From: Nitrospirales bacterium
GTDB taxonomy: Bacteria > Nitrospirota > Nitrospiria > Nitrospirales > UBA8639
Length of the DNA: 64,000 bases
Direction: 5' to 3'
Assembly: GCA_965212625.1 (NCBI GenBank)
Contig: OZ243124.1
Coordinates: 2,007,898 to 2,071,897 of the forward strand
Both the position numbers and the translations under genes were made by a program. Below the pieces are notes generated by a model. It saw only the letters and a program-made list of their open reading frames with translations, had not been told where the DNA came from and did no database searches. Positions 9,976-62,081 of the stretch are shown here, in pieces. Within the stretch, counting starts at the first letter, position 1. Every line of letters begins with the position of its first letter.

Positions 9976-10014
9976 AGAGGGACTCGTTGCTGCCCGTAGC
10001 CAGGGAGGAAGACG

Positions 10015-17822: not shown

Positions 17823-17839
17823 ATCCAGCGTCCGTAGGC

Positions 17840-18893
17840 CTCCAATTCCCCTTCAAAACTGGTGCCAGCTTGGGTATCGATCCTCCAATTCCCCTTCAAA
17901 ATTGGTGACTACCGTGCCCAACTCCCTCCAATTTCCCTTCAAAACTGGTCTGCAACGGTGGGAGGAACCTCCAATTCCCCTTCAAAACTGATGACGACTA
18001 CAGCGGTGCGCCTCCAATTCCCCTTCAAAACTGGTGTGTCATGATCCGTCCTTCCTCCAATTCTCCTTCAAAACTGGTAAGGAACATCATGACCAAACCT
18101 CCAATTCCCCTTCAAAACTGGTTTGATACGCGCGCCACAGCCTCCAATTCCCCTTCAAAACTGGCCTGAAGACGTTTGTCCAGCCTCCAATTCCCCTTCA
18201 AAACTGGCATCATCACGATGTCCTTCCTCCAATTCCCCTTCAAAACTGGCTGCGCGGTCTTGGCGATGCCTCCAATTCCCCTTCAAAACTGGCCTGAGGC
18301 AGATGTATTTGCCTCCAATTCCCCTTCAAAACTGGTTCAACTTTCCTTTGGCGACCTCCAATTCCCCTTCAAAACTGGTTCACTCGCCAAATTATGGCCT
18401 CCAATTCCCCTTCAAAACTGGTTCCCAAGATAGTCGTTTTCCTCCAATTCCCCTTCAAAACTGGTTTCCAGCAACGGCAGGGTCCTCCAATTCCCCTTCA
18501 AAACTGGTAGCCAAAAAACAATTTCGCCTCCAATTCCCCTTCAAAACTGGTCGTGGTGCCGATCGCAACCTCCAATTCCCCTTCAAAACTGGTCCAGGAA
18601 CTCAACCTGAGCCTCCAATTCCCCTTCAAAACTGGTCTCAAAGAGACTGGAGGTCCTCCAATTCCCCTTCAAAACTGGTTGATCATCGTCTCTCCTTCCT
18701 CCAATTCCCCTTCAAAACTGGTGAGTCCATCCGCGCAGGACCTCCAATTCCCCTTCAAAACTGGTTATCGCAACGCGTGGCGGCCTCCAATTCCCCTTCA
18801 AAACTGGTTTGGTGATCTGAAAAATGCCTCCAATTCCCCTTCAAAACTGGTGCCGCCGTCCGCGTCGGCCCTCCAATTCCCCTTCAAAACTGG
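17840..18893 (-). CRISPR. CRISPR array: 25 repeats of 24 nt (+ strand CCTCCAATTCCCCTTCAAAACTGG), 24 spacers of 18-20 nt
   Basis: Repeat starts are spaced 42-44 bp. Repeats 7-25 are identical. Repeats 2, 3, 4 and 6 carry single substitutions, marking the old end at the left. AT-rich leader lies at the right end. The strand call is an inference from this polarity. Confidence 0.95.
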
Positions 18894-18953
18894 TCATATA
18901 TCAGTTAACCATGTATATTTCAACAAATTTTTGATTTTTTCAAAGAGTTATTT
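18894..18953 (-). promoter_or_regulatory. AT-rich CRISPR leader with a candidate minus-strand promoter
   Basis: About 75% AT against a GC-rich background. On the minus strand: TTGAAA (18918-18923), 17 nt, then TATATG (18895-18900), directly abutting the first repeat. Confidence 0.35.
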
Positions 18954-19982
18954 ATGCCTGAAATTAGTGAATTTCAACATCCAGATTCAATTTGGACATG
19001 GAAGTCAAATAAGCGTAGGAGAAAGACAACCTTGTGGCTGCCTTATGTCTCTCGGGTGGAGAGTGTCAAGAAGAGAGTCTGGCGGTTTACATATAACGGA
19101 GGCGAGGTCGACACCGATGTGGCACGGCTTGATTGCGTCATGTTTTATGGCGCGACGGGACAGATTCCCATTGCGCTCATTGACGATCTTGCCGCGCTCC
19201 GCGTGCCGCTGCTGGTCCACCGGCGCAACATCGGCCGCCCCGCCGTCTTTTTGCCGGCGCCCAGAGCCGATGCCGACGACATTCTGACGAAACAGATCGT
19301 CGCCCGCACGCATGGCCCGAAACGCGCCTACCTTGCGCGAACCCTGGTGCGCGAGCGGTTCCGAGGCGTGGCAGGCACCTTCTCTCTCCCCGATACGGCC
19401 TATCGGCGGCTTGCCCTGACGCGCACCCTCGGGCAGGTCCGCCTCTGGGAGGCCGAGCACTCACGCAAATACTGGAGGAAGTATTTCGCCAGCCTGGGCC
19501 ATCCGGACGTCACACGGCGGGAGAAAGGGCCGCTCCCCGCTGCGCTCGATGCCGGTTCCATGTTTCTGTCGGGGATTCTCCTCCGCTGGCTGTTGATCCA
19601 CCGGCTTTCACCCAGTCACGGCTTCCTCCATGAAGGGACCGATTACATGGGGCTTGTGTACGATCTCATGGAGCCGGCACGGTACATGATTGAAGAGGCA
19701 CTCGCCGTTGCGTGCAAGTCTCATCTCCCGGACGGCGATGCTGACTCGCTGACGAAATCGACTTTATCCGCAATAAAAAACAACTTGGAAAAGGTTGTCT
19801 ACGTTCCCGCGACCCGTCAGTCCGTCCGCCGCAAAAACCTGTTGCACGGAAACGTGCTGGCACTACGGGCCTATCTTGCCGGCGACATGCGTCGGTTCGT
19901 CATTCCCACCGCGGGGGAACGCAAAGGGGGGCGGCCGCCAAAAGTTTCGTACTGGCTGCCGGGTGATATTCCTTCGAGGTGA
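18954..19982 (+). CDS. cas1: CRISPR-associated integrase Cas1
   Basis: WEAEHSRKYW and GFLHEGTDYMGLVYDLMEPARY match conserved Cas1 Glu/His/Asp-Glu motifs. The start is uncertain: ATG 18954 lies in AT-rich sequence, and a TTG near 19032 is possible. Confidence 0.8.
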   Translation: MPEISEFQHPDSIWTWKSNKRRRKTTLWLPYVSRVESVKKRVWRFTYNGGEVDTDVARLDCVMFYGATGQIPIALIDDLAALRVPLLVHRRNIGRPAVFLPAPRADADDILTKQIVARTHGPKRAYLARTLVRERFRGVAGTFSLPDTAYRRLALTRTLGQVRLWEAEHSRKYWRKYFASLGHPDVTRREKGPLPAALDAGSMFLSGILLRWLLIHRLSPSHGFLHEGTDYMGLVYDLMEPARYMIEEALAVACKSHLPDGDADSLTKSTLSAIKNNLEKVVYVPATRQSVRRKNLLHGNVLALRAYLAGDMRRFVIPTAGERKGGRPPKVSYWLPGDIPSR

Positions 19983-19986
19983 AAGT

Positions 19987-20069
19987 GCCTCCCCTTTTTG
20001 AAGGGCACCCGGGGAGGCGGGGGCGCCTTCCAGGTTGAGGTATGGATGTTAATCCTTGTGCCTGGAAGG
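19987..20069. ncRNA. Candidate anti-repeat (scout/tracr-like) RNA or bidirectional terminator: two hairpins
   Basis: Hairpin 1: gcctcccc (19987-19994) pairs with ggggaggc (20011-20018). Its 16-nt loop contains ttttgaaggg (19996-20005), the reverse complement of repeat positions cccttcaaaa. Hairpin 2: ccttccagg (20026-20034) pairs with cctggaagg (20061-20069). Confidence 0.35.
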
Positions 20070-20092
20070 GAATGTGGGGACATGGTCGGTTA

Positions 20093-23000
20093 TTATCGCT
20101 GCTGGGTCAAGTCCCGCCGTGATTTTTCGGAGTCAATCCGTTCAAAAAAACGCCGTCCGATGTTGATCGATGCGTTTTCATCCGCGTGTCCCTCGAAACC
20201 GCAATCTAGATAGACGCATCTGAAACGGGACTGCGTGGTGTCGGAAGACATTTCGGATGCCGGAGGTTGGCGCATGTTTCGCTTAGCGATAGACTCGACG
20301 CGATGACGCGGTTCGGTCCCTTTTGAGATTGGGACGTTCAGCGGCGGTCTTTCCTTGCGGTGGCGGAAGTTCTTCAAAGCATTGGGCGGATAATCAGCTC
20401 GGTTGAGAAGCCGTATCGTCCCGTTTTTAAGGGCAACGTGGCCAGATTCTCCCACCTCGATCTTGTCCGGCATGTTCCGAAGCTCCTGAAGTGCGTTCCG
20501 GCCGCACCGGTGGCAGGTCTGGCTGGTGCCGGCGGGGTTTACCTTGATGCCGGGGAAGAGGCGAAGCGGCTTGGACGGGCCGGAATACTGATTTTCCGTC
20601 GTGTTCCAGTTCTGGACGTAGATGTAAGGGTGTTCCCAGGTATCTGCCGTGAACCAGTGTTGACGGCGAATGGTCTTGTGCGCGTCCACTTCCGAATACA
20701 CGTAACGCCGCAGGACCGACCCGTAGATCATCTCTAGCTGCCGGCCCCCCGATTCAAAATTGCCAACCGATCTTTCGAGTATGGGAAACCCACGGAACCG
20801 TTCGCACAGGGTCTCAATGCGGTTGCAGACGTCTCCCACGATGTTTTCCCGGAACTGCATCAGGGCGTTCGAGTAGGTCTGGCCGACCTTCTGGTTGGGT
20901 TGCCGCGAACCGCGGTGCCGGCGGACCGCGGCTTGCAATTTCCTGAAGGTGGGAATTGCGACGCTACCGACCTCGAACGGGTCTCGGCAGCCGCTTTCCA
21001 CGAACTTCTTCAGCGAGAAGATCGCGTATCCGATGCGCCGTTCGCCAAGGTCGATGGCAACGATGTTGTCGAAAAGCAGGGCGTCCTTGGTTTCGGGATA
21101 AGGCCGTTTGTCAACGACGGGAACGGCAAGCTCAGCCCGAATTTTCACCGGCTCCGCCGAAAGGCGCACATTCTCACCTTCCAGTTTCAAGGACTGCTTG
21201 AACACCCGGTCCAGGAGCAACGTGTAGTCGCCGAGTTTCACGTCCTTGTCCCTCACGGTCTCCGTCAAGGTGCGGTCCAGCCATGTCTTGAACGAAGGCG
21301 GTCCGACCAATCGAAAGGCCGGCCGTTTGAGAGGTCTCCACCGTTTGAGATCGGTCGCGTTCTTCTTCACGGGCAATCCGGCTAGCCGCGGCGCCGTACC
21401 AGAGCGGAGGTTGAGTTCGACGAACCAGTCGTGGGGCGCTTGGCGCAACAGTGCCCGCGAACCCGGCTCGGGAAAGTTCGCCTTGCTCAAGCCCTCCACT
21501 GTCTTCCGGGGTAGAACCGCGATGGTTTGATCACGCACGACCGCTGGGAGTGCCAAGCCTTTGGCAATCTCGCCCTTGGCTGAGGAATAGTCCGCGGGCG
21601 GCTGCCAAGGGCGGTCCTTCGGGACATAAAACAACTCTTCGTGGTCAAGGCGCAAAAACTTTGCGCGCACGATGAAACTGTCACGAAACGCACGAAACGA
21701 AAGTCCATTGATGTCGCTGTTGAAGAGATTAAACGCGCGCACGGCGACGTTACGGGGAACTGTTTCTGCGTCGAGTTGCGCCGCGAGCAAGGGCGGAATG
21801 TCGACGGCGGCGGTGGCCGGTCTTGCCAAGTGCCCGGGAACAGAGTCGGGCAGTCCGGCGAGCCGCGTCGTAAAGACGAACTCTTCAACCAACAACAGGT
21901 CCCGGAAATGCGCGTGATTCGCGTCTGGAACCGACCTAAGTTCCTTGCGGATTTCCGCTGCGCGCTGCTCCAACCAGGCGAGCCAGTCAATTGCCCGGGC
22001 GCGGTCCATATCGAGACCGTATGCTTGATGACGGGATGTACTGAAAGGGTGCCGATAGATGGCGCCGCTGCGGTTGTGGAAGTAACGATTGGCTTCCTTC
22101 TCATTCAGAAAAATCGGCGTCATTGCTTCCCGAACTCGCCTGGCTGCGCGGGACGACAGCCTGCGCGACATGGCAGCGATGCGGTGAAGCAGGCGTCGAA
22201 GGGCGTATTCGGCCGCAAGACTAGAATCTATCTTACGGTCGGAGAGCGCCTTTCGCTCGCGTTCTTCCAAAGCGGGAAACGGATCAAGAGCAGCACCGCC
22301 CACCCATTCGGTAAGCCGCCGGAAGTGCTCTCGACGCCCCTGCATGGCGCCATTCAGGCGGGTTTCCAGGCGTTGAATCTCGCCGCGCGCGTCGTCGGTT
22401 CCGCCGGATATCCTGTTCAGCTTCGGCAGCTTGGGGAGCTTTTTCAATTCCTTAGAGAATTCCCGCTTAAGCGATTCGAGGCGGTTTGCGCGAGCTTCGT
22501 CTTCGGCGGATTCTCTTTCCTGCTCAAGACGGTTGTCCAACATGGCGAATTGACCCCTCAGTTCGGTCAATTCACTTGCCACGGTGTCGATAGTTTCGAT
22601 CTCCTGCGGCCCTGGAATATCGCCACCTCTCAAGATGGCGAGCGCGGCGCCGGCTTCTTGGACTCGCTCGGGAACACGATCGGAGAGGGCGACCAGACCG
22701 GCCACGTCAGTGTGCTGCCCCGAAAACAGCGAGGCGTTTTCGGCGTCTGTCAGTCGTTCAGGGATCAAGATATCTGGCGGCTGAGAATACAGCGCGGTGA
22801 GTTGACAAATCCGTTTCCAGTAGTTCGAGACCCATGAGGCGATCTTGCCGCCGACCGAGCCGCGGAACTCGGCGTAGCCGTCCGTCTCGAAGATCGGGTT
22901 GACCGGAATCGCGTCTGCGAACACTTTGAGTTGCTCTACCCGTCGCAGTTCTGTGTGAGGGACGGCGAGGGCTTCAACGAGGTGCTCAATACTTGATTGA

Positions 23001-23893
23001 CGAAGGAAGCACAGACCCTTGCCGAACAACCAGGACAACCCGTTATTCTGGCTGGTGACGACCTCTCCATTCAAACGGCCGGCAAATTTGGACGATGTCG
23101 GATCGAGCCCGGGCATGTCCCGTTGCAGTCTGCCGGCGCAAACCGCCACCACCTGATGAAGCCAAATTGCTTCGTTGCCGTCCATGTCCACGAACGGCGA
23201 TTCGGGATCGTGGGCGAGTGTGCCGGACGGACCTCTTCTGCGGTTACATACAGGTGGAAGCGCGCCGATCTTTGGAAAAGAATCTCCAAGAGTTGCAAAA
23301 TACTCGTCTGCGCACGCCAACGCGCCCTCGACAGCGTCGGCGAGGTACTTCCATCCGGAGAATTTTGCGGTGACTTCTGAGGCTATTCCCTTAGCCAACG
23401 ATAATTCAGGCTGATCTTTCTCCGTCTCCTTCGGTGAACGGTTGTTCCAGTCTTGAAACAATCGTCGTGTAAGTTCGTCCGCCGACCACGGGCGCTCAAC
23501 CCCGCCTCTACTTTGTGGGGAAGTGGTAAGGACCTTTTCGATTGACCGGACTGTAACGGCAGGGTTCGTGATTTTGGCGTGTACGGTGAGCGCCGCGGCA
23601 AAGGCAGCTTCGGGGTAGTGCCTTCGATTCACGAACTGGCGTGTTTCCACTTCTTTGGAAAACAGCCGGAACCCGGATAGGTGAATCGCACAGACCAAGC
23701 CGATCAAGCTCCCCCGTGCAATCCCCTCGGTGACGTCGTATGTCCGAGCAGCCGTGTCGAAGTCTATATCGCCGTCCTGGACGTCCAGCTTGAACTTGTA
23801 CGTAAAGACGCTTTCCTTCTGTCGGCGCGCCAATGCGGCTACTTTACGCCGCCAGTCGCGGGCATTCTGACCACCGTAATATTCTCGTCTCAT
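20093..23893 (-). CDS. cas12: Type V CRISPR effector, Cas12c/Cas12d(CasY)-like
   Basis: RuvC-I is IVAIDLGERRIGYAIF. RuvC-II is FPILERSVGNFESGG. RuvC-III is GHADENASINIGRRF. Zn-ribbon cysteines: TSQTCHRCG ... CVYLDCG. ATG 23893 follows GGAG with an 8-nt spacer. The open frame extends to 23983 (1296 aa). Confidence 0.85.
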   Translation of the reverse strand: MRREYYGGQNARDWRRKVAALARRQKESVFTYKFKLDVQDGDIDFDTAARTYDVTEGIARGSLIGLVCAIHLSGFRLFSKEVETRQFVNRRHYPEAAFAAALTVHAKITNPAVTVRSIEKVLTTSPQSRGGVERPWSADELTRRLFQDWNNRSPKETEKDQPELSLAKGIASEVTAKFSGWKYLADAVEGALACADEYFATLGDSFPKIGALPPVCNRRRGPSGTLAHDPESPFVDMDGNEAIWLHQVVAVCAGRLQRDMPGLDPTSSKFAGRLNGEVVTSQNNGLSWLFGKGLCFLRQSSIEHLVEALAVPHTELRRVEQLKVFADAIPVNPIFETDGYAEFRGSVGGKIASWVSNYWKRICQLTALYSQPPDILIPERLTDAENASLFSGQHTDVAGLVALSDRVPERVQEAGAALAILRGGDIPGPQEIETIDTVASELTELRGQFAMLDNRLEQERESAEDEARANRLESLKREFSKELKKLPKLPKLNRISGGTDDARGEIQRLETRLNGAMQGRREHFRRLTEWVGGAALDPFPALEERERKALSDRKIDSSLAAEYALRRLLHRIAAMSRRLSSRAARRVREAMTPIFLNEKEANRYFHNRSGAIYRHPFSTSRHQAYGLDMDRARAIDWLAWLEQRAAEIRKELRSVPDANHAHFRDLLLVEEFVFTTRLAGLPDSVPGHLARPATAAVDIPPLLAAQLDAETVPRNVAVRAFNLFNSDINGLSFRAFRDSFIVRAKFLRLDHEELFYVPKDRPWQPPADYSSAKGEIAKGLALPAVVRDQTIAVLPRKTVEGLSKANFPEPGSRALLRQAPHDWFVELNLRSGTAPRLAGLPVKKNATDLKRWRPLKRPAFRLVGPPSFKTWLDRTLTETVRDKDVKLGDYTLLLDRVFKQSLKLEGENVRLSAEPVKIRAELAVPVVDKRPYPETKDALLFDNIVAIDLGERRIGYAIFSLKKFVESGCRDPFEVGSVAIPTFRKLQAAVRRHRGSRQPNQKVGQTYSNALMQFRENIVGDVCNRIETLCERFRGFPILERSVGNFESGGRQLEMIYGSVLRRYVYSEVDAHKTIRRQHWFTADTWEHPYIYVQNWNTTENQYSGPSKPLRLFPGIKVNPAGTSQTCHRCGRNALQELRNMPDKIEVGESGHVALKNGTIRLLNRADYPPNALKNFRHRKERPPLNVPISKGTEPRHRVESIAKRNMRQPPASEMSSDTTQSRFRCVYLDCGFEGHADENASINIGRRFFERIDSEKSRRDLTQQR

Positions 23894-24358
23894 GAAGTGA
23901 ACTCCATATTTGGGCAATTTCACAATCCCGGTTGGTGAATTCCTTCCCCTGATGCCAAGCCAACCACCTTGGCCGATATCCATTAAGACTATGTAGCGAC
24001 ATGCCCGGTACTGTCAACGCCTAGCTTGGCTAGGGACCAAGCCTCCAGGTTGCCTCCTTCGCTGCAAGGAAAAACTGATTTCAACTCCCGAGGAAAACTT
24101 GAACCTCACGCCTACCCGCCCGCGCCGTTTGTGTGTTTGACTCTCCGATTACGCTATGCGAAAAGGCACTTCAGCGAAAGTGGAAGGGTGCGGTTCATTA
24201 TGAACTGTTCGAGACAGTGCCGGCTTAGATGGTGATCGTTTCAAGGTCCCGACCGCGTGTGTCGCCGAGGTTTCCGGTCTTGACCAGCGGCCACCCCTTC
24301 CTTGTTTGATCGCTGGGTTCCTTTGCGTCTATCAGCCACGCTTTTCCACTCGTCAAGA

Positions 24359-25885
24359 ATGAACCGTTCGCTCATGGACCGTTCTTGGATACTGGTCGTC
24401 TTCGTCGGGTATTGTGCGACGCTGATCGGCATTGCCGTCTTTCGCGGCCGGCGGATGCGGGTGATGTCCGATTACGTGCTTGGGGGGCGGCGGATGAGCA
24501 GTTTCACGTCGGCGCTCAGTGCCAGTTCGTCCGGCACCAGCGGTTGGGCGATTCTGGTGTTTCCGGCGTTGGCCTTCCAGCATGGGTTGGTGGAGGCGTG
24601 GACGGCTCTGGCGTTGGTGGCGGGCATCTGGTCCGGTTGGACGGTGCTCGCGAAACGGCTGCGTCGCTACACCATTGCCGCGGAGGATTCCCTCACCCTG
24701 CCGGAGTTCCTGGAAAAGCGGTTCGGGGACGCCACCGGGACCGTGCGCACGGTGGCGGCGCTCATCACCCTCTTTTTCATCGTCTTCTACCTCAGTTCCG
24801 GCTTGATCGCGGGTTCCAAGTTGTTGGGGACGGTGTTCGGACTGGATGAGATGCTGGGGGTGGTGGTGACGCTCGCGGCCGTGGGGTCCTACACGTTCAT
24901 CGGCGGCTTCCTGGCGGTGTCCAGGACCGACGTGTTTCAGGCGGCGCTGATGCTGGCGGCGTTCGTCATCCTGCCGTTGTGGTTAATCGTCGTGACGGAC
25001 AACCCGTTCGAGGGCCTGGGTGAGACGACGCCCGGCTTCTGGAATCCCTTCACTGACCGGAAGGGCGATCCTCTCAACGCGATCTTTTTGCTCTCGACGG
25101 TAGGATGGGGATTGGGCTACTTGGGCTCGCAGCGCGTGGTGCAGCGTTTCATGGCGGTGGGAAGCGAGGCCAGGATTCCGCAAAGCCGCGCCATCGGCAC
25201 GGCGTGGATGTTCCTCGTCTATCTGTTTGCGCTGTTGCTGGGGCTGGTTGCCCTGCCGGCGCTGTCGGAGGCAGGCCGGCTGGACGAGGTGACGGCCGAC
25301 CCCGAGCGCGTCTATCTTGTGGCGACGCAGGTGTTCTTCCACCCGATCGTGGGCGGGCTGTTGCTGTCCGCGGTGATTGCCGCGGTGATGAGCACGGCGG
25401 ATTCGCAACTGTTGTTGGCGTCGGTGGTCACCACCAATGATCTGCCTTTCGTCAAACGGTACACCGCTGCGCTGGGGGCCGGTGCCCGGGTCCGGTTGGC
25501 CCGGGTTCTGCTCGTGGTGACGGGCGTCGTGGCCGCGGCGTTCTCGATTGTCAACCCGGAATCGGTGTTCGTCCTGGTGTCGTACGCCTGGGGCGGCATG
25601 GGGGCGGCGTTTGCCCCGGTCACGATCATGGCGCTGTACTGGCGCCGGTTCAACGTTCAGGGTGCGGTTGCGGCCATGGTGACCGGTACGGCTGCGGCGT
25701 CAATCTGGGGATACGCTTCGGGCGGTCCCGCCGGGATCATGGACCTGCAACCCGCCACTCCCGGCTGCCTGACGGCGGTGCTGGCGGCCGCCGTCGTGAC
25801 CGTGCTGACGCCTAGGCCGTCCACGGCGGCGGTGGCCCTGTTCGACAAGGTGAACGCTCCCGCCGCAAGACCGGCCAGGCCCTGA
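24359..25885 (+). CDS. putP: Sodium:solute (proline) symporter, SSF family
   Basis: About 508 aa, polytopic membrane protein. GGRRMSSFTSALSASSSGTSGW and further SSF-like segments. The ORF opens at 24302, but ATG 24359 is more plausible. Confidence 0.7.
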   Translation: MNRSLMDRSWILVVFVGYCATLIGIAVFRGRRMRVMSDYVLGGRRMSSFTSALSASSSGTSGWAILVFPALAFQHGLVEAWTALALVAGIWSGWTVLAKRLRRYTIAAEDSLTLPEFLEKRFGDATGTVRTVAALITLFFIVFYLSSGLIAGSKLLGTVFGLDEMLGVVVTLAAVGSYTFIGGFLAVSRTDVFQAALMLAAFVILPLWLIVVTDNPFEGLGETTPGFWNPFTDRKGDPLNAIFLLSTVGWGLGYLGSQRVVQRFMAVGSEARIPQSRAIGTAWMFLVYLFALLLGLVALPALSEAGRLDEVTADPERVYLVATQVFFHPIVGGLLLSAVIAAVMSTADSQLLLASVVTTNDLPFVKRYTAALGAGARVRLARVLLVVTGVVAAAFSIVNPESVFVLVSYAWGGMGAAFAPVTIMALYWRRFNVQGAVAAMVTGTAAASIWGYASGGPAGIMDLQPATPGCLTAVLAAAVVTVLTPRPSTAAVALFDKVNAPAARPARP

Positions 25886-25964
25886 GTTCCGTTGTCCGCT
25901 GTGCCGTCAAGACGGAACCGATTTCGCTTCTGAGGGAAAACTCACATCCCATGCCTGTGCGTGT

Positions 25965-25993
25965 TTGACTCTTCGGCGTCAACGGCGTCTAAT
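25965..25993 (+). promoter_or_regulatory. Candidate sigma70-type promoter (TTGACT-17-TCTAAT)
   Basis: 28 of 31 nt identical to the element at 28278-28308, upstream of recQ. Confidence 0.4.
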
Positions 25994-26024
25994 CAACCCG
26001 TTCATTTCACTCTGGAGTCGCCGA

Positions 26025-27260
26025 ATGGATTTCCACGTCGAACGAAGTTCGAATCGCATTTCGATACAAGGTGGCGTGCAACGTCACCATTTACGGCGCC
26101 TGTGTGCGTCTCTCCATCAAACGATAGTTGATCGTGGCTTTTCCGACGTTGTCTTGGACTTTTCTGCGTGCGACGGCGTGACGGAAGCCGTGATGCTTCC
26201 ACTGATGCCAATCATTACGGACTATCGCAGACGGGGAATCGGCTTCGATTTGATTCTACCGGCGGATGCCCAGCTCAATCGGCTTTTTCTCAATGCCAAC
26301 TGGGGACACCATATCAAACCGGAACGGTATGACCGTTCTTCACACGAAGGCGGCCACGTTCCTGCCCTTCGCTTCGGTGGGATGGACGATCAAAACGAAA
26401 TTCTCGATAACGTCATGAGATTGATTCTGAGGCAACTGGAAACGGATCGGTCAACCCTGAAGGCGATTGAGTGGTCACTTGGGGAAATCATGGATAACGT
26501 ATCCAATCACGCCCAATCACCGGTCGGTGGATTCGTGCAGGCCACGGCATATACAAACAGGAACCAAGTGGAGTTCGTCGTGTCCGACGCCGGCATCGGT
26601 ATTCCCGCGAGCATGCAAATAGACAATCACGCGACGGCACTCAGAGAAGCCATTCACGAAGGGGTTACCAGAGATCCAACCCAAAACGCCGGCAACGGCC
26701 TTTACGGAAGTTATCGCGTTGCCTTGCTGTCGGGCGGTCAATTTGAGATCCATTCCTTGCACGGCCTGTTATCCGTCAACAATCCTGACGAGGGAATCAG
26801 AAATAGTCAGGAGGCGGTGCCCTACAATGGGACGTCCGTTCGATGTGCCATCACGGTCGGCGACCATGAATTGCTCAATAAGGCTCTCCGATTCAAAGAT
26901 GTGCCGCATGATCCGCCCTTTGATTATATTGAGCGTACATTCGAGCGTGGTCGGGGTGACGTGACGCTCAACATGAGAGAGCAGGCGTGGGGTGACTTCG
27001 GCTCTCGTCAGGGGGGAGTGAAGATTCGCAGCGTGATCCGGAATCTCCTGAATCTGAATCATCCGGTTATTCTCGATTTCAACGGCGTCGGCGTCATATC
27101 AAGCAGTTTCGCCGACGAAGTTTTCGGGCGTTTGTTCGTCGAGATGGGACCGCGTGCCTTCATGACGCGAATCGACATGCGGAACGTCGATCCGACCGTT
27201 GAGGGTCTGATCGATCGGGCCATCGTGCAGCGCACCCGGCTCGGGAACGGTGACACGTGA
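26025..27260 (+). CDS. STAS-like N-domain + GHKL ATPase/kinase + C-terminal DUF4325 (STAS-like) protein
   Basis: ATG 26025 follows GGAG. GHKL N-box EIMDNVSNHA, G1 VSDAGIGIP, G2 NAGNGLYG. C-terminus VILDFNGVGVISSSFADEVFGRL is typical of DUF4325. Confidence 0.55.
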   Translation: MDFHVERSSNRISIQGGVQRHHLRRLCASLHQTIVDRGFSDVVLDFSACDGVTEAVMLPLMPIITDYRRRGIGFDLILPADAQLNRLFLNANWGHHIKPERYDRSSHEGGHVPALRFGGMDDQNEILDNVMRLILRQLETDRSTLKAIEWSLGEIMDNVSNHAQSPVGGFVQATAYTNRNQVEFVVSDAGIGIPASMQIDNHATALREAIHEGVTRDPTQNAGNGLYGSYRVALLSGGQFEIHSLHGLLSVNNPDEGIRNSQEAVPYNGTSVRCAITVGDHELLNKALRFKDVPHDPPFDYIERTFERGRGDVTLNMREQAWGDFGSRQGGVKIRSVIRNLLNLNHPVILDFNGVGVISSSFADEVFGRLFVEMGPRAFMTRIDMRNVDPTVEGLIDRAIVQRTRLGNGDT

Positions 27261-27509
27261 CGCGCGTACTGCCGCGACCGGCCAGCGGCTCAACCGCCGT
27301 GAAAAATTCCGCGTTGATGGTCCTCAATGGTGTACGCAATCGTCGCATTCGGCGAAGACGCGGATGATACCGGTTTGTCTCATTGCAAACTCGTTCCGCG
27401 TCTGCTATAAACGGGGTCGTCTCAATCGTTGTGGCGGTCACAATCCGGCCCACGTGGGGCCGCTGGGTGATCGTCATGATGCCGTTAATCTTCTTTTTCG
27501 TCTTCATCC

Positions 27510-28046
27510 TCATTCTCTTCTTCGGCGGGGTCGGGCTCGTCTCCGTTCTCTCCGGCTTTGTGTAGGGCACGGCATGGCCGCGTCGGCCGTGCCGTGGTTT
27601 GGCTCGTCCTGCTTTGTCTGGTCTTGGCGCGTCGGCCGTGCTGTTTCAAGCGCGTAGGGTCGAAGCTTTTTGCGTAGTTCTTTGGAAGGGTTGGCGGTGG
27701 TATACTTGCCGCCCTTCAGCCACGATTCCGACTTCTTCCAAGCGTCAGGCGCGAACTCCAGCAGTGTATCGTGGGGCACGAGATACCAGACTCCCTCAAT
27801 GGGGAAGTTCATCCATATCTCTTTCCCTTCATACTTTTTGTCTATTCCCAGGCGGCTTTTCAGTTGGACCTTGAGGGTTGTGTCTGCATCCTTGTGGTAT
27901 GCGAGAAAATCGGCGCCTTGCCAGTCGTCCGCCAGCTTGATGCAGTTGAATCCATATTCGGCGAGGACGGCTGCGGATTTCTGAAAATTGTATATTTCCT
28001 TCTGTCTCGCACTCAGTTTCTTAAATTCGACCCGACGCAGCTTCAT
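27510..28046 (-). CDS. Small hypothetical protein, possible PD-(D/E)xK nuclease fold
   Basis: MKLRRVEFKK... with GADFLAY-x13-LKVQLKS, a D...(Q/E)xK-like pattern. The arginine-rich C-terminal tail looks non-native, and the upstream extension to 28133 lies in repeat-derived sequence. Confidence 0.35.
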   Translation of the reverse strand: MKLRRVEFKKLSARQKEIYNFQKSAAVLAEYGFNCIKLADDWQGADFLAYHKDADTTLKVQLKSRLGIDKKYEGKEIWMNFPIEGVWYLVPHDTLLEFAPDAWKKSESWLKGGKYTTANPSKELRKKLRPYALETARPTRQDQTKQDEPNHGTADAAMPCPTQSRRERRRARPRRRRE

Positions 28047-28169
28047 GCCCGTTGCCTCTGCGCCGCCGCCGGCACCATCGGCACCGCCGGAAGAAGCCGG
28101 CACATGGGAAGATGATTGCTTTGAGTTTGCCAAGTCTTCTTCCTGTCTCGTCCTGGGAAAGGGAGAGAG

Positions 28170-28198
28170 ATTGTGAAAGAGCCGTGAGCCGATGTCAA
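28170..28198 (-). promoter_or_regulatory. Candidate promoter (TTGACA-17-CACAAT) inside duplicated cassette copy A
   Basis: The homologous element at 32904-32932 is TTGACA-17-CAACAT. Confidence 0.4.
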
Positions 28199-28279
28199 CC
28201 GGTTGGCAGCCGATTTTCGACGGGTCGAGACCGCGGTCGGGCTTTGATCACCTTGAGACCGTTTGACTCTTCGGACCGT

Positions 28280-28308
28280 TTGACTCTTCGCCGTCAACGG
28301 CATTTAAT
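28280..28308 (+). promoter_or_regulatory. Candidate promoter (TTGACT-17-TTTAAT) for recQ
   Basis: The -35-containing 18-mer gaccgtttgactcttcg is tandemly duplicated here. Homologous to 25965-25993. Confidence 0.4.
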
Positions 28309-28346
28309 TCGGCGTGTCCGTAAAACAAGCAAGAGGAAAAGACGAA

Positions 28347-29873
28347 GTGAAGTACGATTCCCATCGAGCTCGCGCATTACTGAAGTCCGGCACCGGCCGA
28401 CCTGATGCCGCGTTCCGGGAGGGACAGGAAGAGGCTATTCGCCGTCTCGTGGAAGGACGCGGTCGCCTTCTCGTTGTCCAGAAAACCGGTTGGGGCAAGA
28501 GCGTTGTGTACTTCATTGCGGCCAAACTCCTGCGTGAAGCCAGAGAGGGTCCCGCGCTTCTCGTCTCCCCACTGCTTGCGTTGATGCGGAACTAGATCGC
28601 CGCCGCGGAGCGGATGGGGATTCACGCAATCCGTATCGCTTCCGACAACCAGGATGACTGGAAGGTCGGAGAAGAAGAGGTGCGATGCGGCAAGGCGGAC
28701 GTCCTGCTCATTTCCCCCGAGCGACTTGGCAACGAACGCTTCCGTACCGAGGTGTTGGCGGAAGTTGCCGAACGCATCAGCCTGCTGGTCATTGACGAAG
28801 CCCACTGCATCTCGGATTGGGGACACGATTTCAGGCCCGACTACCGGCGGATCGAACGGATCGCCCGCGACCTTCCGGCGAACCTCCGCCTTCTCGCCAC
28901 CACCGCGACCGCAAACGATCGGGTGATGGACGATCTCGCCGCGGTGCTTGGCCCCGGCCTGGAGGTGCTTCGCGGCGATCTCGACCGGCCGTCGCTCATG
29001 CTCCGGACGATACGATTACCTCGGCAGTCGCAACGGTTGGGGTGGCTTGCGGAGCAGCTTCCCGCGTTGCCCGGCTGCGGAATCATCTACACGCTCACCG
29101 TCCGGGATGCGATTCAGGTGGCGGAATGGCTCCGGTCACGAGGACTGGCCGTGGAATCCTATACGGGACAAACCGGAGACCGGCGCGAGGCCCTTGAACG
29201 GTCGTTGCTTGAGAATCGCGTGAAGGCGCTGGTCGCGACGACCGCGCTGGGAATGGGCTTCGACAAACCGGATCTCGGCTTCGTGATCCACTACCAGACC
29301 CCGGGATCGGTCGTGGCTTATTACCAGCAGGTGGGCCGTGCCGGTCGTGCGCTTGACGTGGCCTATGGCGTGCTGTTGAGCGGCGAGGAAGAGACCGACA
29401 TCACGGATTACTTCATTGCCAGTGCGTTCCCGACCCGTGATGAAGTTCGGCAGGTGATCGAAGCGCTCGAAGCCGCACCGAGCGGCCTGTCCGTCCCGGA
29501 TCTGCTCGGAAGCATCAATCTCAGCCGTGGACGCATCGAGAAGACGATAGCACTGCTCTCACTCGAATCACCGGCGCCCATCGCAAAACAAGGGACCACG
29601 TGGCAGTTGACCGCCGCAAACCTGAGCGACGAATTCTGGGAGCGGGCGGAGCGCCTGACCACCCTGCGGCATGAGGAGCAGCGCCAGATGCAGGAGTACG
29701 TGAGGCTCGAATCCGGACACATGGAGTTTCTCATCCGGGCGCTGGATGGAGATCCGGGAACCGTTCGCCCGCCGGACCTGCCGCCGCTGCCTACGGAGGT
29801 CGATCCGAGGCTCTTGCAGGAGGCGGTCACGTTCCTCCGCCGTACCAGTATACGACGTCAAGCAGAATGTTAA
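28347..29873 (+). pseudogene. recQ: RecQ-family helicase, helicase part of a RecQ-PRTase fusion, interrupted by an in-frame TAG and a MITE
   Basis: FREGQEEAI, VVQKTGWGKSVVY (motif I), VSPLLALMRN*IAAAERMGI (TAG 28593-28595 where RecQ has Q), LLVIDEAHCISDWGHDFRP (DEAH), LATTATA, VATTALGMGFDKPD, QQVGRAGR. Both ORFs are in the same frame. Confidence 0.8.
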
Positions 29874-29977
29874 AATGAGAATAGAAACAAGCGAAAACGC
29901 CTTTATTTGCAAGGCATTCACGATTATTCACAAATATTTCTCAAAATCGCAATTAACATTTTGATTGACGTCCTATA
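29849..29977. mobile_element. MITE-like insertion, 129 bp, AT-rich, ~25-bp terminal inverted repeats, 5-bp target-site duplication ACCAG
   Basis: Left end is tatacgacgtcaagcagaatgttaa. The reverse complement of the right end is tataggacgtcaatcaaaatgttaa, giving 22 of 25 matches. ACCAG is present at 29844-29848 and 29978-29982. Confidence 0.8.
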
Positions 29978-29983
29978 ACCAGC

Positions 29984-30559
29984 TTGCCCATCGAACCGCG
30001 CAAGCAATGGCCGGCTGGCGGTATGCCGCAATACGGAGTGCGGCGCAGATTGATCCCCGCGGAGCACCGGGCCGAGACCGGAAAGGCGCTCTGCGTCTGG
30101 GGCGACGCCGGCTGGGGCGGGCTCGTTCGGCGTGGCAAATGCCATGACGGCCGATTCGCGGATGATCTCGTCCGCGCCTGTGCTGCGCTGATGGCCCAAT
30201 GGACCCCGCGGCCGGCGCCCGAATGGGTGACCTGCATTCCGTCACGACGGCAGCCGAATCTCGTCCCGGATTTCGCCGGACGCTTGGCGACGGAGATGGG
30301 CCTGCCGTTCCATCGCTCGCTTTCGAAGGTCAAGGACCGTGCCGAGCAGAAGTCGATGGCGAACAGCGTCCGGCAGGCGCGTAACGTGGACGGCTCGATC
30401 GCGATCTCTACGGGACCGTTGCCGGGTGGGTCGGTCCTCCTGGTGGACGACGTGGTGGACTCGCGCTGGACGTTGACGGTCGCTGCATGGTTGCTGCGAT
30501 CCAACGGCTGCGGACACGTCTGGCCCCTCGCCCTTGCCTTTGCAGGCCATGACCAATGA
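29984..30559 (+). CDS. ComF-like phosphoribosyltransferase domain ORF (3' part of the MITE-split recQ-PRTase gene)
   Basis: [22 protein letters not shown] and the PRPP-loop-like [16 protein letters not shown] start only. The frame is continuous with recQ once the MITE and one TSD copy are removed. Confidence 0.6.
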
Positions 30560-31878
30560 ACACTGAACTTTCTCTGAACACGCAGGCGATGCTGCTGCTG
30601 ACCGCGCCGCTGATCGTCGGGCGGAGTCAGTCCGCCGTCAGCCCTCTGACTGCCCGCGAGTATAACGGTCTTGAACAATGGCTTCGAGAGCGACGGCGCG
30701 ACCCCACCGACTTGTTGGACACCGGAGCGAACGTGGCGTTGAAAGATTGCCGTCTCGGCTTGGATCATGAACGGATAGAACGTCTGCTCGGACGAGGCTT
30801 CCTCCTCAGTCAGGCGGTGGACCGTTGGCGAACGCGAGCGATCTGGGTCGTGAGTCGAGCCGATACAGACTACCCGCGATGCCTGAAAAAGCGTCTTGGT
30901 GATCATACGCCTCCGGTGCTCTACGGCTGTGGCGATGTCACGCTCCTGGAGACCGGCGGTCTGGCGGTCGTCGGCTCCCGGAACGTGGACGATCGACTGA
31001 TAGAATACACCGAGGGCGTGGGGCGGCTCACTGCCGAGGCGCGATGCACGCTGGTATCGGGAGGTGCCCGAGGCGTTGATCAGGCCGCGATGCGCGGGGC
31101 GCTGGAAGCAGGCGGAAGGGTGGTAGGAGTTCTAGCCGACGGTCTCGAAAAGGCCGTGATGCACCGGGAGCACCGCGAAACGTTGATGGACGGTCGGTTG
31201 ACGTTGATTTGTCCATACGATCCCGCTGCCGGTTTCCACGTCGGGCGTGCCATGGAACGTAACAAGCTAATCTACGCGCTATCGGATGCGGCCCTGGTCG
31301 TGAGCTCGGACTACGAGAAAGGAGGCACATGGACCGGAGCCGTGGAGCAACTGGATAAGCTCAAGTTCGTTCCAGTGTACGTCCGTACCAATGACGAGAG
31401 GAATAAGGGTCTTGACGGACTTCGGAAACGAGGTGCTCAACCGTGGCCGAATCCACGTGCTTCGGAAGTTCTCGAAGACATTCTGAAGGGACCATCACTC
31501 GTGGAAGGGATCACGTTGAAGCAAGAGATTCTTCCGCTCAGTGTCCAAGAAGAACGGATGCCGTCTGAGCACGATCGGCAGGTCAAGGCAACAACTTCGG
31601 AAGCCGTGCCTGACGTTCGCGTTGCGGTCACTCCTGGACCCGCGGACGAGTTGCTTGATAAGGTCGGAGATATCCTGAAACGAGCGTGCATGGATGTGCC
31701 TAAGACCGAAACTGAAGTAGCAGAAGCCCTTGACGTCTCGAGACCTCAGGCTCGAGATTGGCTGAAACGCCTGGTCGCCGGAGGCGTCCTTGAAAAACTC
31801 CCTCGGCGGCCGGCCAGATATCGCGCCGTTGGCTCCGCAAGCCCTCTGTTCGATCACGCTGCACTAGACAAACGGTGA
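30556..31878 (+). CDS. DprA/Smf-like (SLOG Rossmann) protein with C-terminal winged HTH
   Basis: ATGA overlap with the PRTase stop. [67 protein letters not shown]-terminus [22 protein letters not shown]. Confidence 0.65.
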
Positions 31879-32833
31879 GAGTGTTCTTGTGCTTCGTTTG
31901 AGAAACCGCCCGGACGTGAAATATGAAGGAACGCAGAAATCCCTGATTTCTTGACAGGATACGCGCTTGCTGCCGCGACCGGCCCGCGGATCGGCCCCCG
32001 TGAACAATTGAGTACGTCATGCGACGAACGTGAGCCGGCAGGTGTTCATTGTAGCCCTCCCAGTCGGCGTATTGCGGAAGTTTCAAGTCACGCGGCCACG
32101 TTTCCATGCTGGCCATCACCTGCATTGGCCCACCGGCCTCCATGGCCTTGCGAATTTCGCCGTTCACCAAGTTGAATAAATCACTCATGAACTTCACGTT
32201 CTCGTCAACGATTGCCACGGAGGCGTCCGCCGAGTGGGCGTTCACCGCGTGGCGCAGGTCTTTCTTTTGCAACTCCTTCAACATCCGGAGGATGGCCAGG
32301 TAGTTGGCGTCGTCCATCCACTTCCCCGGCGTCAGCGCGCGGCGTTCATAGAGGTCGGCGGTAAACGCGATGCGCTCCTCGGGCAAATGCACCACGATGG
32401 AGGCGAACCCGTCGCCCGGACCATAGTAGTGCAGGTCCACCGGTGGCCCGCGAAAGTCCACCCGCAGAGAGTCGGTGAACGTCACGACCACTTTTTCAGG
32501 AGCTACTCCCCCCACATCCAGGTCGAACACGGCTTGGCATGCGGCGTGGCAGATCACCTGAGCCTCGGGGAAGACTCCGGTGCCGCCCACGTGGTCGTAG
32601 TGTTCGTGGGACAGGACGATTCTCGTGACGGGCTTGTCGGTGATGTCGGCGATGGCACGTTTCAGCGACTGGGCCCGTCCCGGAAACGCAGGGTCGGTGA
32701 TCAGCACCCCGTCTTCGCCCACCACCACCAGGCTGGTATAGTGGAACTCGCTCATCATGTACACGTTGTCGGTGAGTCGCTTCACCGTCGGCACCGCCGG
32801 CACCATCGGCACCGCCGGAAGAAGCCGGCACAT
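31700..32833 (-). CDS. MBL-fold metallo-hydrolase; the native 3' end is apparently lost
   Basis: [10 protein letters not shown]...[24 protein letters not shown] (HxHxDH). After ...YSIVHGG the frame reads ~90 low-complexity codons through a repeat junction and antisense into the dprA-like gene. Confidence 0.6.
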
Positions 32834-32903
32834 GGGAAAATGATTGCTTTGAGTTTGCCAAGTCTTATTTTTCTCTACTATCTCGTCTTGGTAAAGGGAC
32901 GGG

Positions 32904-32932
32904 ATGTTGAAGGAACAATGAGCCTATGTCAA
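32904..32932 (-). promoter_or_regulatory. Candidate promoter (TTGACA-17-CAACAT) inside duplicated cassette copy B
   Basis: Homologous to 28170-28198. Confidence 0.4.
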
Positions 32933-33069
32933 CCAGTTGGCATCCGATTTTCGACGGGTCGAGACCGTGGTCATCGTGCCGTCAACGGCATCAAATTCGA
33001 CCTCTTCATTTGACATTTTTTGCAACGACGCCCTAGCTTCGTTTCGAGAAAGTAAAAGGAATCTGAAGA

Positions 33070-44421: not shown

Positions 44422-45269
44422 CAGAATGCTCCGCCCTCAACCTTGTTCCCACGTCCACGGGAACCCAGTCCTCGGTCCTGTCCCGCTTCCTGGATTCCCG
44501 CTTTTGCGGGAATGACGGTTGGGTTGGCAGGAGAGGGCTCACTCCTTCTTCCCTCTCCCATGGAGGGAGAGGGCAAGGGTGAGGGGGGAATTTCCCGGAA
44601 CGCGGCAATCGTCGCCGCATAATCGGGTTGAGCAAAAATTGCCGATCCCGCCACCAGCACCGTAGTGCCGGCTCTTCCGTCATCCTGAGCGGCGCGAAGG
44701 ATCGCTGCCGCGTTCTCAAGGTTGACGCCGCCGTCCACCTCAAGAAAGGCCTGACTGCCGGTACGGTTGAGCAGATGTCTCGCACGACGGATTTTGTCGA
44801 ACGAAGACGGAATAAAGGTCTGTCCCCCGAACCCTGGATTGACCGACATAATCAGCACCAGGTCAACATCCGTCACGACTTCTTCGATGGCGTTCAGGGA
44901 CGTGGAGGGGTTGAGCGTCACGCCGGCCTTTACCCCATGTTCTTTGATGGCGTGAATGGTCCGGTGCAAGTGAGGGCAGGCTTCCACGTGTACCGTGAGA
45001 TAATCGGCCCCGGCTTGCGCAAAGTCGGGAATAAATGCGTCCGGATTGGTCATCATGAGATGAACGTCCAGAGGCAGAGCCGTGACTTTCCGCAATGACT
45101 CCACAATGGGCGGGCCGACCGTGAGATTGGGCACAAAATGCCCGTCCATGACGTCCACGTGCAGCCAATCGGCCCCGCCCGCTTCTACCGCGGCCACCTC
45201 CTCCGCCAACCGCGCAAAGTCCGCGGACAGAATCGACGGCGCAATTGTTACGGGTGATGGGGTTGTCAT
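44421..45269 (-). CDS. rpe: Ribulose-phosphate 3-epimerase with a REP-derived ~55-aa C-terminal extension
   Basis: [46 protein letters not shown]. The tail [14 protein letters not shown]...[12 protein letters not shown] is encoded by two REP elements. Its stop overlaps the pheS ATG (TGATG). Confidence 0.85.
44490..44590. repeat. Two REP elements (ggattcccgc..gcgggaatgac, and ccctctccc..gggagaggg..ggtgaggg) inside the rpe 3' end
   Basis: Palindromes visible directly. Coordinates are approximate. Confidence 0.8.
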
Positions 45270-48032: not shown

Positions 48033-49262
48033 TCACTCTGCCATTTTCTTCTTCACCATGTCGATCACGTCTTGAACGGGAAGGCCGGTCTTCCGGGCAA
48101 GGGTCTGGCAGTCTTGAAATTCCGGTCGATACGTGACGGTCTTCCCCACGTGAACGATTTTCACGCGCACCCGGCCTTGGGGGAGACGGATCGTTTTCAT
48201 GGAACGCGGCAACGTCACGCGGTTGATGAACTGGTGACGCACCCCAAGCGTCGTGGTTTCCCGAAACAGCGTCTGAGTCAGGACCCCGGCCCGCTCGGGA
48301 GGGGCCAGCACCGTCAGGAGAATCCCGGGGCGAGACCGCTTCATCATGGTCGAGGTCAAGGTGACGTCAAGGGCACCGTTCTCAAACAGCTGCGTCATGA
48401 CTGATTCATACAGTTGAGGATTCAGGTCGTCGATCGTGGTTTCTAATTGGATCACCCGGTCGGCCTCAAGCGACTCCGTTGACCCTTCGAAGCTCAGGGC
48501 AAGCCCTTCGAAATTCGGGGCAAGCCCTTCGAAGTTCGGGGCGGGCGTTGAAGATGACAGAACCACGCGCAACACGTTCGGCCAGTCGGGCGGATCGGCT
48601 GTGCCTGCGCCGTACCCGATGGAACGGGGAACGACGGGCGGCAGGTGGCTGCACGGCCGAGTCAGCGTGGTCAACAGGGCCATTCCGGTGGGGGTCGTGA
48701 ATTCCATCGCCGGCCCTCGAGCATAGATGGAAAACCCTTTGGCTAACTCGGTGACCGCGGGACCAGGGACCGGGAACGTGCCGTGGGCCCCGTGGACCGT
48801 TCCGGACCCCACGTTGACGGGCGTGGCCCCGAACGTCTGAATCCCGAGTTCATGACAGCCCAACAGGCTCCCCACAATATCCACCAGGGAATCGATCACG
48901 CCGACTTCATGGAAACGGACGGTGGCACGGTCTCGTCCATGCACGGTGCCTTCGGCTTGGGCGAGCCGCTCGAAGACCGAAAGCGCCTGGGTTTTCACCC
49001 AGGGCGGCAACCGGCTCGTCGAAAGAAGTCGTCGGATTTGCGGCCAGGAAAGAGGAGCGGCACGGCCTTTGGCAATGACGACGTTCACTTTCGTCGCATG
49101 AATCCCGCCGCGGTGGACCTTTGAGACGGTGAGACGATAGCCGGAGACCGGCAGCGCCTTGAGGCCCTTGCGCAGCTTGTGCGGAGACAGCCCCGCGTCA
49201 ATCAGGGCTCCCAACGTCATGTCCCCGCTGATGCCCGAGAAACAATCGAAGTGCAGATACAT
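48033..49262 (-). CDS. larC: Nickel-pincer cofactor biosynthesis protein LarC (DUF111)
   Basis: MYLHFDCFSGISGDMTLGALIDAG. Contains the in-frame repeat-encoded PNFEGLAPNFEGLALSFEG (48483-48542). Confidence 0.8.
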   Translation of the reverse strand: MYLHFDCFSGISGDMTLGALIDAGLSPHKLRKGLKALPVSGYRLTVSKVHRGGIHATKVNVVIAKGRAAPLSWPQIRRLLSTSRLPPWVKTQALSVFERLAQAEGTVHGRDRATVRFHEVGVIDSLVDIVGSLLGCHELGIQTFGATPVNVGSGTVHGAHGTFPVPGPAVTELAKGFSIYARGPAMEFTTPTGMALLTTLTRPCSHLPPVVPRSIGYGAGTADPPDWPNVLRVVLSSSTPAPNFEGLAPNFEGLALSFEGSTESLEADRVIQLETTIDDLNPQLYESVMTQLFENGALDVTLTSTMMKRSRPGILLTVLAPPERAGVLTQTLFRETTTLGVRHQFINRVTLPRSMKTIRLPQGRVRVKIVHVGKTVTYRPEFQDCQTLARKTGLPVQDVIDMVKKKMAE

Positions 49263-62024: not shown

Positions 62025-62081
62025 CCGGACCTTTCGCGGCTCAGGGCAAGCCCTTCGCGGCTCAGGGGAACCTCAGGGTGG

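Follow-up and report, generated by a model that had tools for sequence, protein, structure and literature searches.

A MITE insertion in the psyrT/rqlH toxin gene of a Nitrospirales defence island

The window, a 64-kb stretch of DNA from a Nitrospirales bacterium, contains a RecQ-like helicase frame followed by a PRTase frame, with a short AT-rich sequence between them. The NCBI and ENA records annotate two ORFs at this place, P0121 (419 aa, 28614-29873) and P0126 (178 aa, ~30023-30559). The question is whether these are two genes or the remains of a single one that a mobile element has split and, if the latter, what kind of element it was and what became of the gene. A sequence-only reading of the same DNA had proposed that a MITE interrupts an ancestral RecQ-PRTase fusion gene of about 690 codons.

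The interrupted gene and its insert

The features on which the argument depends are the following.

28347..29848, plus strand: psyrT/rqlH pseudogene, 5' part with the RecQ-like helicase and the linker (codons 1-500 and two nucleotides of codon 501)
28593..28595, plus strand: in-frame TAG nonsense at codon 83; CAG (Gln) in the relative L008 and Q in 8/8 intact homologs
29844..29848, no strand: left copy of the target-site duplication, ACCAG; a single ACCAG here in relatives
29849..29977, plus strand: MITE, 129 bp, 33% GC, non-coding; absent from the same site in the relatives L008, L019 and L025
29849..29873, plus strand: left terminal inverted repeat (TIR), TATACGACGTCAAGCAGAATGTTAA; positions 4-17 (ACGACGTCAAGCAG) invariant in 4/4 copies
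29953..29977, minus strand: right TIR; its reverse complement is TATAGGACGTCAATCAAAATGTTAA, matching the left arm at 22/25 positions
29978..29982, no strand: right copy of the target-site duplication, ACCAG; a single ACCAG here in relatives
29983..30559, plus strand: 3' part of the psyrT pseudogene, PRTase domain (last nucleotide of codon 501 to codon 692 and the stop)
30556..31878, plus strand: psyrA/rqlI, DprA-like antitoxin gene, 440 aa, intact; its ATG overlaps the psyrT stop

Along the window the order is ACCAG, TATACGACGTCAAGCAGAATGTTAA ... TTAACATTTTGATTGACGTCCTATA (29849-29977), ACCAG. Direct reading and alignment agree with the anatomy first proposed, an AT-rich 129-bp element with 25-bp arms that are complementary at 22/25 positions and a flanking ACCAG duplication. 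The GC content of the element is 32.6%, against 63% and 68% in the 500-bp flanks, and stop codons occur in all six frames (no transposase ORF). When up to three mismatches are allowed, the TIR 25-mer is found at two places only in the 64 kb, and in 0/100 dinucleotide-preserving shuffles; the window thus holds one copy of the element. As single-stranded DNA the element forms a single extended hairpin (-20.6 kcal/mol, z = -4.6), with complementarity between the arms limited to ~25 bp. A candidate functional module inside it, a GCCTT...AAGGC hairpin with terminator-like and promoter-like matches on the minus strand, was rejected, as it is not conserved in the copies at L020 and L021 described below. 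Its identity as a known RNA or ribozyme was likewise discarded, since an Rfam search with the element returned sub-threshold noise only (mir-44, E=0.75; M23, E=0.13).

The helicase frame opens with GTG at 28347 and is broken inside codon 501 of 692, at the helicase boundary and just upstream of the PRTase domain. It enters the element and, as had been read from the sequence, stops there, after seven element-encoded codons (IRRQAEC) and a TAA. The insert measures 134 bp (129 + 5), which is 2 mod 3, and its removal joins ...FLRRTS to LPIEPRK... in frame. With the TAG at codon 83 read as Gln, the excised ORF encodes 692 aa and is 98% identical to P0001 (692 aa) over 98% of its length; the proposed repair therefore holds. 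The junction FLRRTS-LPIEPRK is invariant in 8/8 intact homologs aligned, and none of the intact homologs carries the element at the psyrT site. Such single-ORF homologs of 688-708 aa, whose existence the sequence-only reading had made a check on itself, are abundant: at least 8000 proteins were matched at E<=1e-20, and the best 120 of these are single ORFs of 658-708 aa with 94-100% query coverage. One detail of that reading has to be corrected. The downstream PRTase ORF was said to have a TTG start only, whereas an ATG at ~30023 (MPQYGV..., 178 aa) is present besides the TTG at 29984.

The repaired ORF matches the Pfam families DEAD, Helicase_C and ResIII, with a weak C-terminal match to Pribosyltran, and P0001 aligns with the PADLOC profile PsyrT at E=3.5e-266 (residues 1-689 against profile positions 1-685 of 689). 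On these profile matches, the split gene is assigned to PsyrT/RqlH, the predicted RecQ-like helicase and PRTase toxin of PsyrTA/RqlHI. The helicase-PRTase fusion is real and ancestral, so the proposed gene of about 690 codons stands, but it belongs to an already-known family and is no new architecture.

Empty sites and further copies of the element

Evidence for insertion comes from relatives. The locus L008, on ENA ERZ25068339 contig_6 (1.44 Mb), was reached via P0001 as a match to the repaired protein, and its DNA is 96-99% identical to window positions 15353-17838 and 24335-33030. At the corresponding site it reads ...CGCCGTACCAG joined directly to CTTGCCCATCG..., with one ACCAG. The same empty site is present in L019 (98% identical) and in L025 (94-97% identical), so that all three relatives share ...CGCCG[T/G]ACCAG followed at once by CTTGCCC..., within flanks about 94-99% identical to the window. 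Relative to these three, the window has exactly 134 bp extra, of which 129 bp are the element and 5 bp a repeat of ACCAG. Such a difference between filled and empty sites is what transposition through a 5-bp staggered cut leaves behind.

The search for other copies began from the TIR. An exact TIR-core pattern, GACGTCAANCANAATGTTAA, was run on GTDB representative genomes, JGI metagenomes and IMG/VR, and gave 7 (genome), 10 (metagenome) and 0 (viral) single matches. None of these was similar beyond the pattern and they were rejected as chance matches; the scans covered the window-type TIR only and would have missed the L020/L021 subfamily. Because the exact-core scans gave nothing but chance matches, a peptide-based search was chosen, in which protein databases were queried with the element's six-frame peptides for ORFs predicted through other copies. 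It returned one match. A HMMER scan of representatives with P0149 then yielded the third copy, together with the host gene of the second. The copies outside the window are as follows.

L020, 273-401: 129 bp, 89% identical to the window copy; target-site duplication ATGGG/ATGGG
L021, 10029-10167: 139 bp with a 10-bp internal duplication, intergenic; target-site duplication CCGGC/CCGGC
L027, 13562-13690: 129 bp, 83% identical to the window copy; target-site duplication ATGAC/ATGAC

The copy at L020 also interrupts a gene, in this case for a protein of ~490 aa. After excision in silico its frame is colinear with P0151 and 79% identical across the junction, and the uninterrupted allele of this host gene is P0150, in L027 (an empty site). 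The L021 copy is identical in four independent assemblies (L021-L024). L027 lies on the same contig as L008, which means that the genome with an empty psyrT site carries the element elsewhere, at one copy in the 42.7 kb sampled. A TIR-like 22-mer (19/22) at L027 8341-8362 was dismissed as a further copy, being inside GC-rich coding sequence and having no partner arm. Overall, homologous elements with the same ends occur in five independent assemblies (ENA, Logan), and a four-copy nhmmer profile found no further copies in the 302 kb examined.

The four loci carry four different 5-bp duplications, ACCAG, ATGAC, ATGGG and CCGGC. Three more copies at unrelated loci, each with a 5-bp duplication of its own, establish a real MITE family, and one that was recently active in this lineage. 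The claim that a non-autonomous transposon is or was active in this genome is thereby borne out, by three empty sites and four insertions with different duplications. As far as the database comparisons made here can tell, the family appears to be previously uncatalogued. The copies fall into two subfamilies, the window and L027 copies against those at L020 and L021, told apart by TIR positions 18-19. The L020/L021 subfamily, whose TIR arms match at 19-20/25, has TT instead of AA at these positions in both arms. Since the change affects both arms, the ends evidently evolve under a constraint to remain similar, which is what binding of both by a single protein would lead to. The outermost 2-4 terminal bases vary among copies (TATA, TAGA, TGAA), and a degenerate TIR pattern across the family can be written, for example, as ACGACGTCAAGCAGNNTGNNAAAATGAGAATA.

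The earlier reading had also suggested a search for further copies and for the autonomous partner that would supply the transposase. The copies were found and the partner was not. Pfam scans of about 45 window ORFs showed no transposase domain, and neither the window ORFs nor the exact-core scans revealed an autonomous element with these TIRs. A broader left-end pattern gave nothing on viral contigs, and blastn with the element against PLSDB plasmids and INPHARED phages gave no meaningful match. Duplications of 5 bp are also made by some IS3, IS21, IS1380, IS701 and Tn7/Mu-type elements. To our knowledge, however, arms of ~25 bp beginning T-A-N-A resemble the ends of none of these, nor those of Tn3, and we know of no catalogued IS or MITE family that combines a 5-bp duplication with T-A-N-A termini. 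The transposase was presumably a DDE-type enzyme of the cut-and-paste or copy-in kind; outermost bases that vary, as they do here, are unusual for DDE transposon ends.

Decay of psyrT beside an intact psyrA

PsyrTA, or RqlHI, is an anti-phage toxin-antitoxin pair that consists of a PRTase toxin and a DprA-like antitoxin (Sberro 2013; PMC4670107; bioRxiv 10.1101/2022.05.11.491447). In E. coli, RqlH alone brings about SOS induction and filamentation, which RqlI counteracts; residues 509-690 of the RqlH PRTase are needed for toxicity, while the PRTase domain alone is non-toxic; and suppressors of an rqlI deletion were isolated through transposon disruption of rqlH (Russell & Mulvey 2015, PMC4670107). 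The window shares the layout of this system, as its repaired gene is a full-length PsyrT followed by the overlapping gene for a DprA-like PsyrA. It resembles the E. coli suppressors in that the toxin gene was hit by a transposon in both. The literature describes neutralisation of the toxin by the antitoxin and protection from phage for the E. coli and P. syringae homologs; the toxin gene here is a natural pseudogene in a lineage of the uncultured type.

The antitoxin gene adjoins psyrT in the same orientation. Its product matches PADLOC PsyrA at E=3.6e-131 and the Pfam families DNA_processg_A and SLOG, with a C-terminal wHTH. The window, L008, L019 and L025 all have an intact psyrA, of the same length in the first three; in the psyrA dN/dS comparison, the pairs with L025 were set aside as invalid on account of a 1-codon length difference.

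A second lesion in psyrT, the TAG at 28593-28595, had escaped the sequence-only reading. It falls in the SPLLALMRNQ stretch and is a C>T change that turns CAG into TAG. This nonsense at codon 83 is independent of the MITE. L019, which is without the MITE, has a different psyrT nonsense, AGA>TGA at codon 523, and P0123 ends at the same residue as this stop. The dN/dS of psyrT between the window and L008 is 0.20, and the other pairs give 0.15-0.25, in a comparison of four alleles of which that of L019 is itself a pseudogene. As the ratio is unchanged in the window, the inactivation of psyrT there is recent. Together, the MITE and the nonsense codon make the window psyrT a pseudogene, and by analogy with the genetics of E. 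coli RqlH both toxin and defence function would have been lost.

The setting is a defence island, which occupies positions 1-34.6 kb of the window. It includes genes for a Ppl-like ATPase, two Schlafen/AlbA_2 proteins, HmaB, HmaC, HEC-01A and an Nsn-like ATPase, as well as a type V-C CRISPR-Cas locus, PsyrTA and a methyltransferase. Housekeeping genes follow the island (ThrRS, IF3, L35, L20, PheST), and the relatives carry different cargo between the gene for HmaC/DUF499 and that for an SSF transporter.

Alternatives, mechanism and significance

Several other accounts of the insert have to be weighed. The one that survives best, though very unlikely, is that a palindromic repeat moved by another route, either as a REP/PATE-type repeat via an IS200/IS605-like single-strand transposase or as a Tn3-derived TIME. 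The single long hairpin (z = -4.6), arms that covary as those of a hairpin would, and the lack of an IS partner in the searches made are all in keeping with it. However, single-strand (Y1) transposition leaves no target duplication, whereas a 5-bp duplication was found at 4/4 loci. Tn3 inverted repeats end in GGGG, which is absent from the TIRs of this element. TIMEs are non-autonomous and, like Tn3, also give 5-bp duplications, in which the present element is like them, but they measure ~262 bp with Tn3-type inverted repeats of 38-40 bp, and the copies found here measure 129-139 bp with unrelated TIRs of ~25 bp that start T-A-N-A (PMC4133298). TIMEs are usually single-copy in Pseudomonas (PMC4133298).

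With bacterial MITEs, on the other hand, the element has in common its 129 bp, the missing ORF, TIRs of ~25 bp, a target-site duplication of fixed length, dispersed copies, insertion polymorphism and gene inactivation. Prokaryotic genes inactivated by MITEs are well documented, for example the mcy microcystin genes of Anabaena (PMC10969869, PMC3184786). What sets the window element apart from described bacterial MITEs is that it is without a match in Rfam, PLSDB plasmids and INPHARED phages. Its palindromic form, a length in the 100-150 bp range and ~25-bp TIRs also resemble those of the Correia elements of Neisseria, ERIC and the Rickettsia palindromic elements (RPEs). Correia TIRs also start TATAG, but Correia elements duplicate TA, against the 5 bp duplicated by the window element. 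RPEs, too, lie within protein-coding genes, but they insert in frame and leave the host protein intact, unlike the insertion described here, which adds 134 bp (2 mod 3) and a stop codon.

Another account holds that the interruption is functional, as a reversible excision switch or as the source of a promoter or start for a free-standing PRTase and PsyrA module; it is given only a slender chance. The PRTase ORF does retain two starts, ATG and TTG, shortly after the element, psyrA is intact, and the duplication of the L027 copy supplies the ATG of the next gene. Yet the only promoter-like match of the element lies on the minus strand and points away from the PRTase, the unrelated upstream nonsense shows that the gene is decaying, the PRTase of E. 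coli RqlH is non-toxic by itself, and no evidence for precise excision was encountered. That the source record contains a chimeric join, and the insertion is thus an artefact of assembly or sequencing, is most improbable: the single copy within the 64-kb window would fit, but the 5-bp duplication at the junctions is perfect, homologous elements with the same ends recur in the five independent ENA/Logan assemblies, and two contigs (NCBI and ENA) carry the chimeric 419-aa ORF whose end falls within the element. An ordinary pair of neighbouring genes, one for a RecQ helicase and one for a ComF-like PRTase, with an AT-rich spacer and a chance inverted repeat between them, can be dismissed despite the two ORFs that gene callers annotated (P0121, 419 aa; P0126, 178 aa), since three near-identical relatives without exactly these 134 bp refute this, the best 120 of at least 8000 homologs are single ORFs of ~690 aa at >=94% query coverage, and the 129-bp sequence recurs at three unrelated loci with 5-bp duplications of their own.

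The account preferred is that a MITE mobilised in trans inserted recently into psyrT and, together with the nonsense codon, left a toxin pseudogene beside a retained antitoxin gene; this is very probably correct. A transposase supplied in trans would bind the ~25-bp TIRs of the non-autonomous 129-bp element, and a 5-bp staggered cut at the target would lead to insertion within codon 501 of psyrT. The insertion ends the helicase part after seven foreign codons and uncouples from it the C-terminal PRTase domain, which E. coli RqlH requires to be toxic. With the change from CAG to TAG at codon 83, the outcome is a psyrT pseudogene next to an intact psyrA. Loss of the toxin may have been tolerated, or even favoured, because the antitoxin was kept. 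A more far-reaching version seems doubtful to us. In it, the element belongs to an uncatalogued transposon family whose transposase, outside the described IS families, makes 5-bp staggered cuts and recognises T-N-N-A-[C/G]-GACGTCA ends. The repeated independent knock-outs of psyrT in this clade, by a MITE and a nonsense codon here and by a different nonsense codon in L019, would then be due to selection for losing a costly PRTase toxin, the DprA-like antitoxin being kept as an 'anti-addiction' gene.

What appears to be new here is a MITE family in a known defence gene; the psyrT/rqlH family and the inactivation of genes by MITEs were both known. In itself this is ordinary gene inactivation by a small transposon, and nothing known is overturned. 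The locus nevertheless offers a clear natural case of MITE mobility, in which near-identical genomes have the site either occupied or empty and four insertions have four different 5-bp duplications, and it points to a trans-acting transposase that was recently active in this lineage of ~2.8-2.9 Mb and 58-59% GC. In annotation, the 'genes' at 28614-29873 and ~30023-30559 should be joined as a single psyrT pseudogene, and any tally of working PsyrTA defence systems should leave this locus out. Independent events struck the toxin gene, which lies in a variable defence island, in two sister lineages, and the window adds a case of toxin-first decay in which the antitoxin is retained.

A hotspot of variable defence cargo

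Part of the defence island is occupied by different genes in different genomes, each set lying between the HmaC/DUF499 gene on one side and the SSF transporter gene on the other.

17838-24335 in the window, 2486-6550 in L008 and 575-7144 in L025: defence-cargo hotspot
17836-18897, 18954-19982 (+) and 20093-23983 (-): type V-C CRISPR-Cas locus (array, cas1 and Cas12c)

The cargo is type V-C CRISPR-Cas in the window, XamI- and Eco57I-type restriction-modification genes in the close relative L008, and DruA, DUF87 and Eco57I-type genes in L025, another close relative. The type V-C locus is absent from L008 and L025. Its array contains approximately 25 repeats with a period of 43 bp, each unit consisting of a repeat of about 25 nt (CCTCCAATTCCCCTTCAAAACTGG) and a spacer of just ~18 nt. 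The array is accompanied by cas1 without other adaptation genes and is adjoined by a Cas12c of 1296 aa (PADLOC E=0). Very short spacers and an adaptation module of Cas1 only are typical of type V-C. A stand-alone CARF-HEPN gene (Csm6/Csx1-like; 53114-54373, minus strand; PADLOC E=6.7e-164) lies 30 kb from this locus and is surrounded by housekeeping genes.

Variable sequence and paired modules around psyrTA

25965-27260: GHKL-ATPase and STAS-like DUF4325 gene, the upstream neighbour of psyrT
27251-28238 and 31952-32972: two paralogous modules
27510-28133, minus strand: 207-aa ORF
27612-28143: 532-bp stretch carrying this ORF, with a 9-bp direct repeat (CTCGTCCTG) at its bounds
28257-28290: 17-bp tandem duplication (GACCGTTTGACTCTTCG twice), ~60 bp 5' of the psyrT start

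The product of the GHKL-ATPase gene matches part of a DrmA model (E=9e-30). In L025, 593 bp of this gene (window 26172-26764) are missing at 8981/8982, and a 138-aa ORF remains. The 532-bp stretch is found in the window and in L019, and is missing from L008 and L025; this difference may be an insertion, or it may be a deletion mediated by the direct repeat. The 207-aa ORF had no Pfam, NCBIfam or PADLOC match. L008 has only one copy of the 17-bp unit.

The two modules have three repeat blocks in common (D9, D7 and D8; 58-88 bp, 80-92% identity), which flank the minus-strand 207-aa ORF in one module but a minus-strand metallo-beta-lactamase-fold gene in the other. These blocks look like the upstream and downstream regions common to a cassette-like unit. 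L019 is without window 32599-32869.

The L027 MITE copy and other repeats

L027 13562-13695: MITE copy with its TSD, directly 5' of an HTH_31 and metallo-beta-lactamase-fold gene
L027 8341-8362: TIR-like 22-mer (ACGACGTCGTGCAGAATTTTAA), 19/22 against the left TIR of the MITE
9554-10011: tandem array of 74-bp units, ~5-6 copies, 88-91% identical
6094-6152, 44532-44590 and 45841-45899: dispersed ~59-nt palindromic repeats (TCCCTCTCCC...GGGAGAGGG)
48481-48544, 62028-62070 and 62650-62703: dispersed repeats with a ~21-nt unit (GCCCTTCGAAGCTCAGGGCAA)

In L027, from the same contig as L008, the right-hand TSD of the MITE copy (ATGAC) supplies the ATG start of the downstream gene, and the element has therefore replaced the whole upstream region of that gene. 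The 22-mer falls within an 808-aa ORF without a Pfam family, and its flanks are ordinary coding DNA. Shuffled L027 sequence gave no matches to the left TIR at this stringency, and no partner arm was found for the 22-mer.

The 74-bp array overlaps an unassigned minus-strand ORF (9378-10139). The short dispersed GC-rich repeats form two families, both possibly REP-like, and neither is related to the MITE.

Parallel decay of the toxin gene

L019 11567-11569: nonsense change in psyrT, AGA>TGA at codon 523, in a relative without the MITE

A psyrT protein from another assembly (P0123) terminates at the same residue. The L019 nonsense change is independent of the lesions in the window: the toxin gene has decayed in parallel, with psyrA intact.
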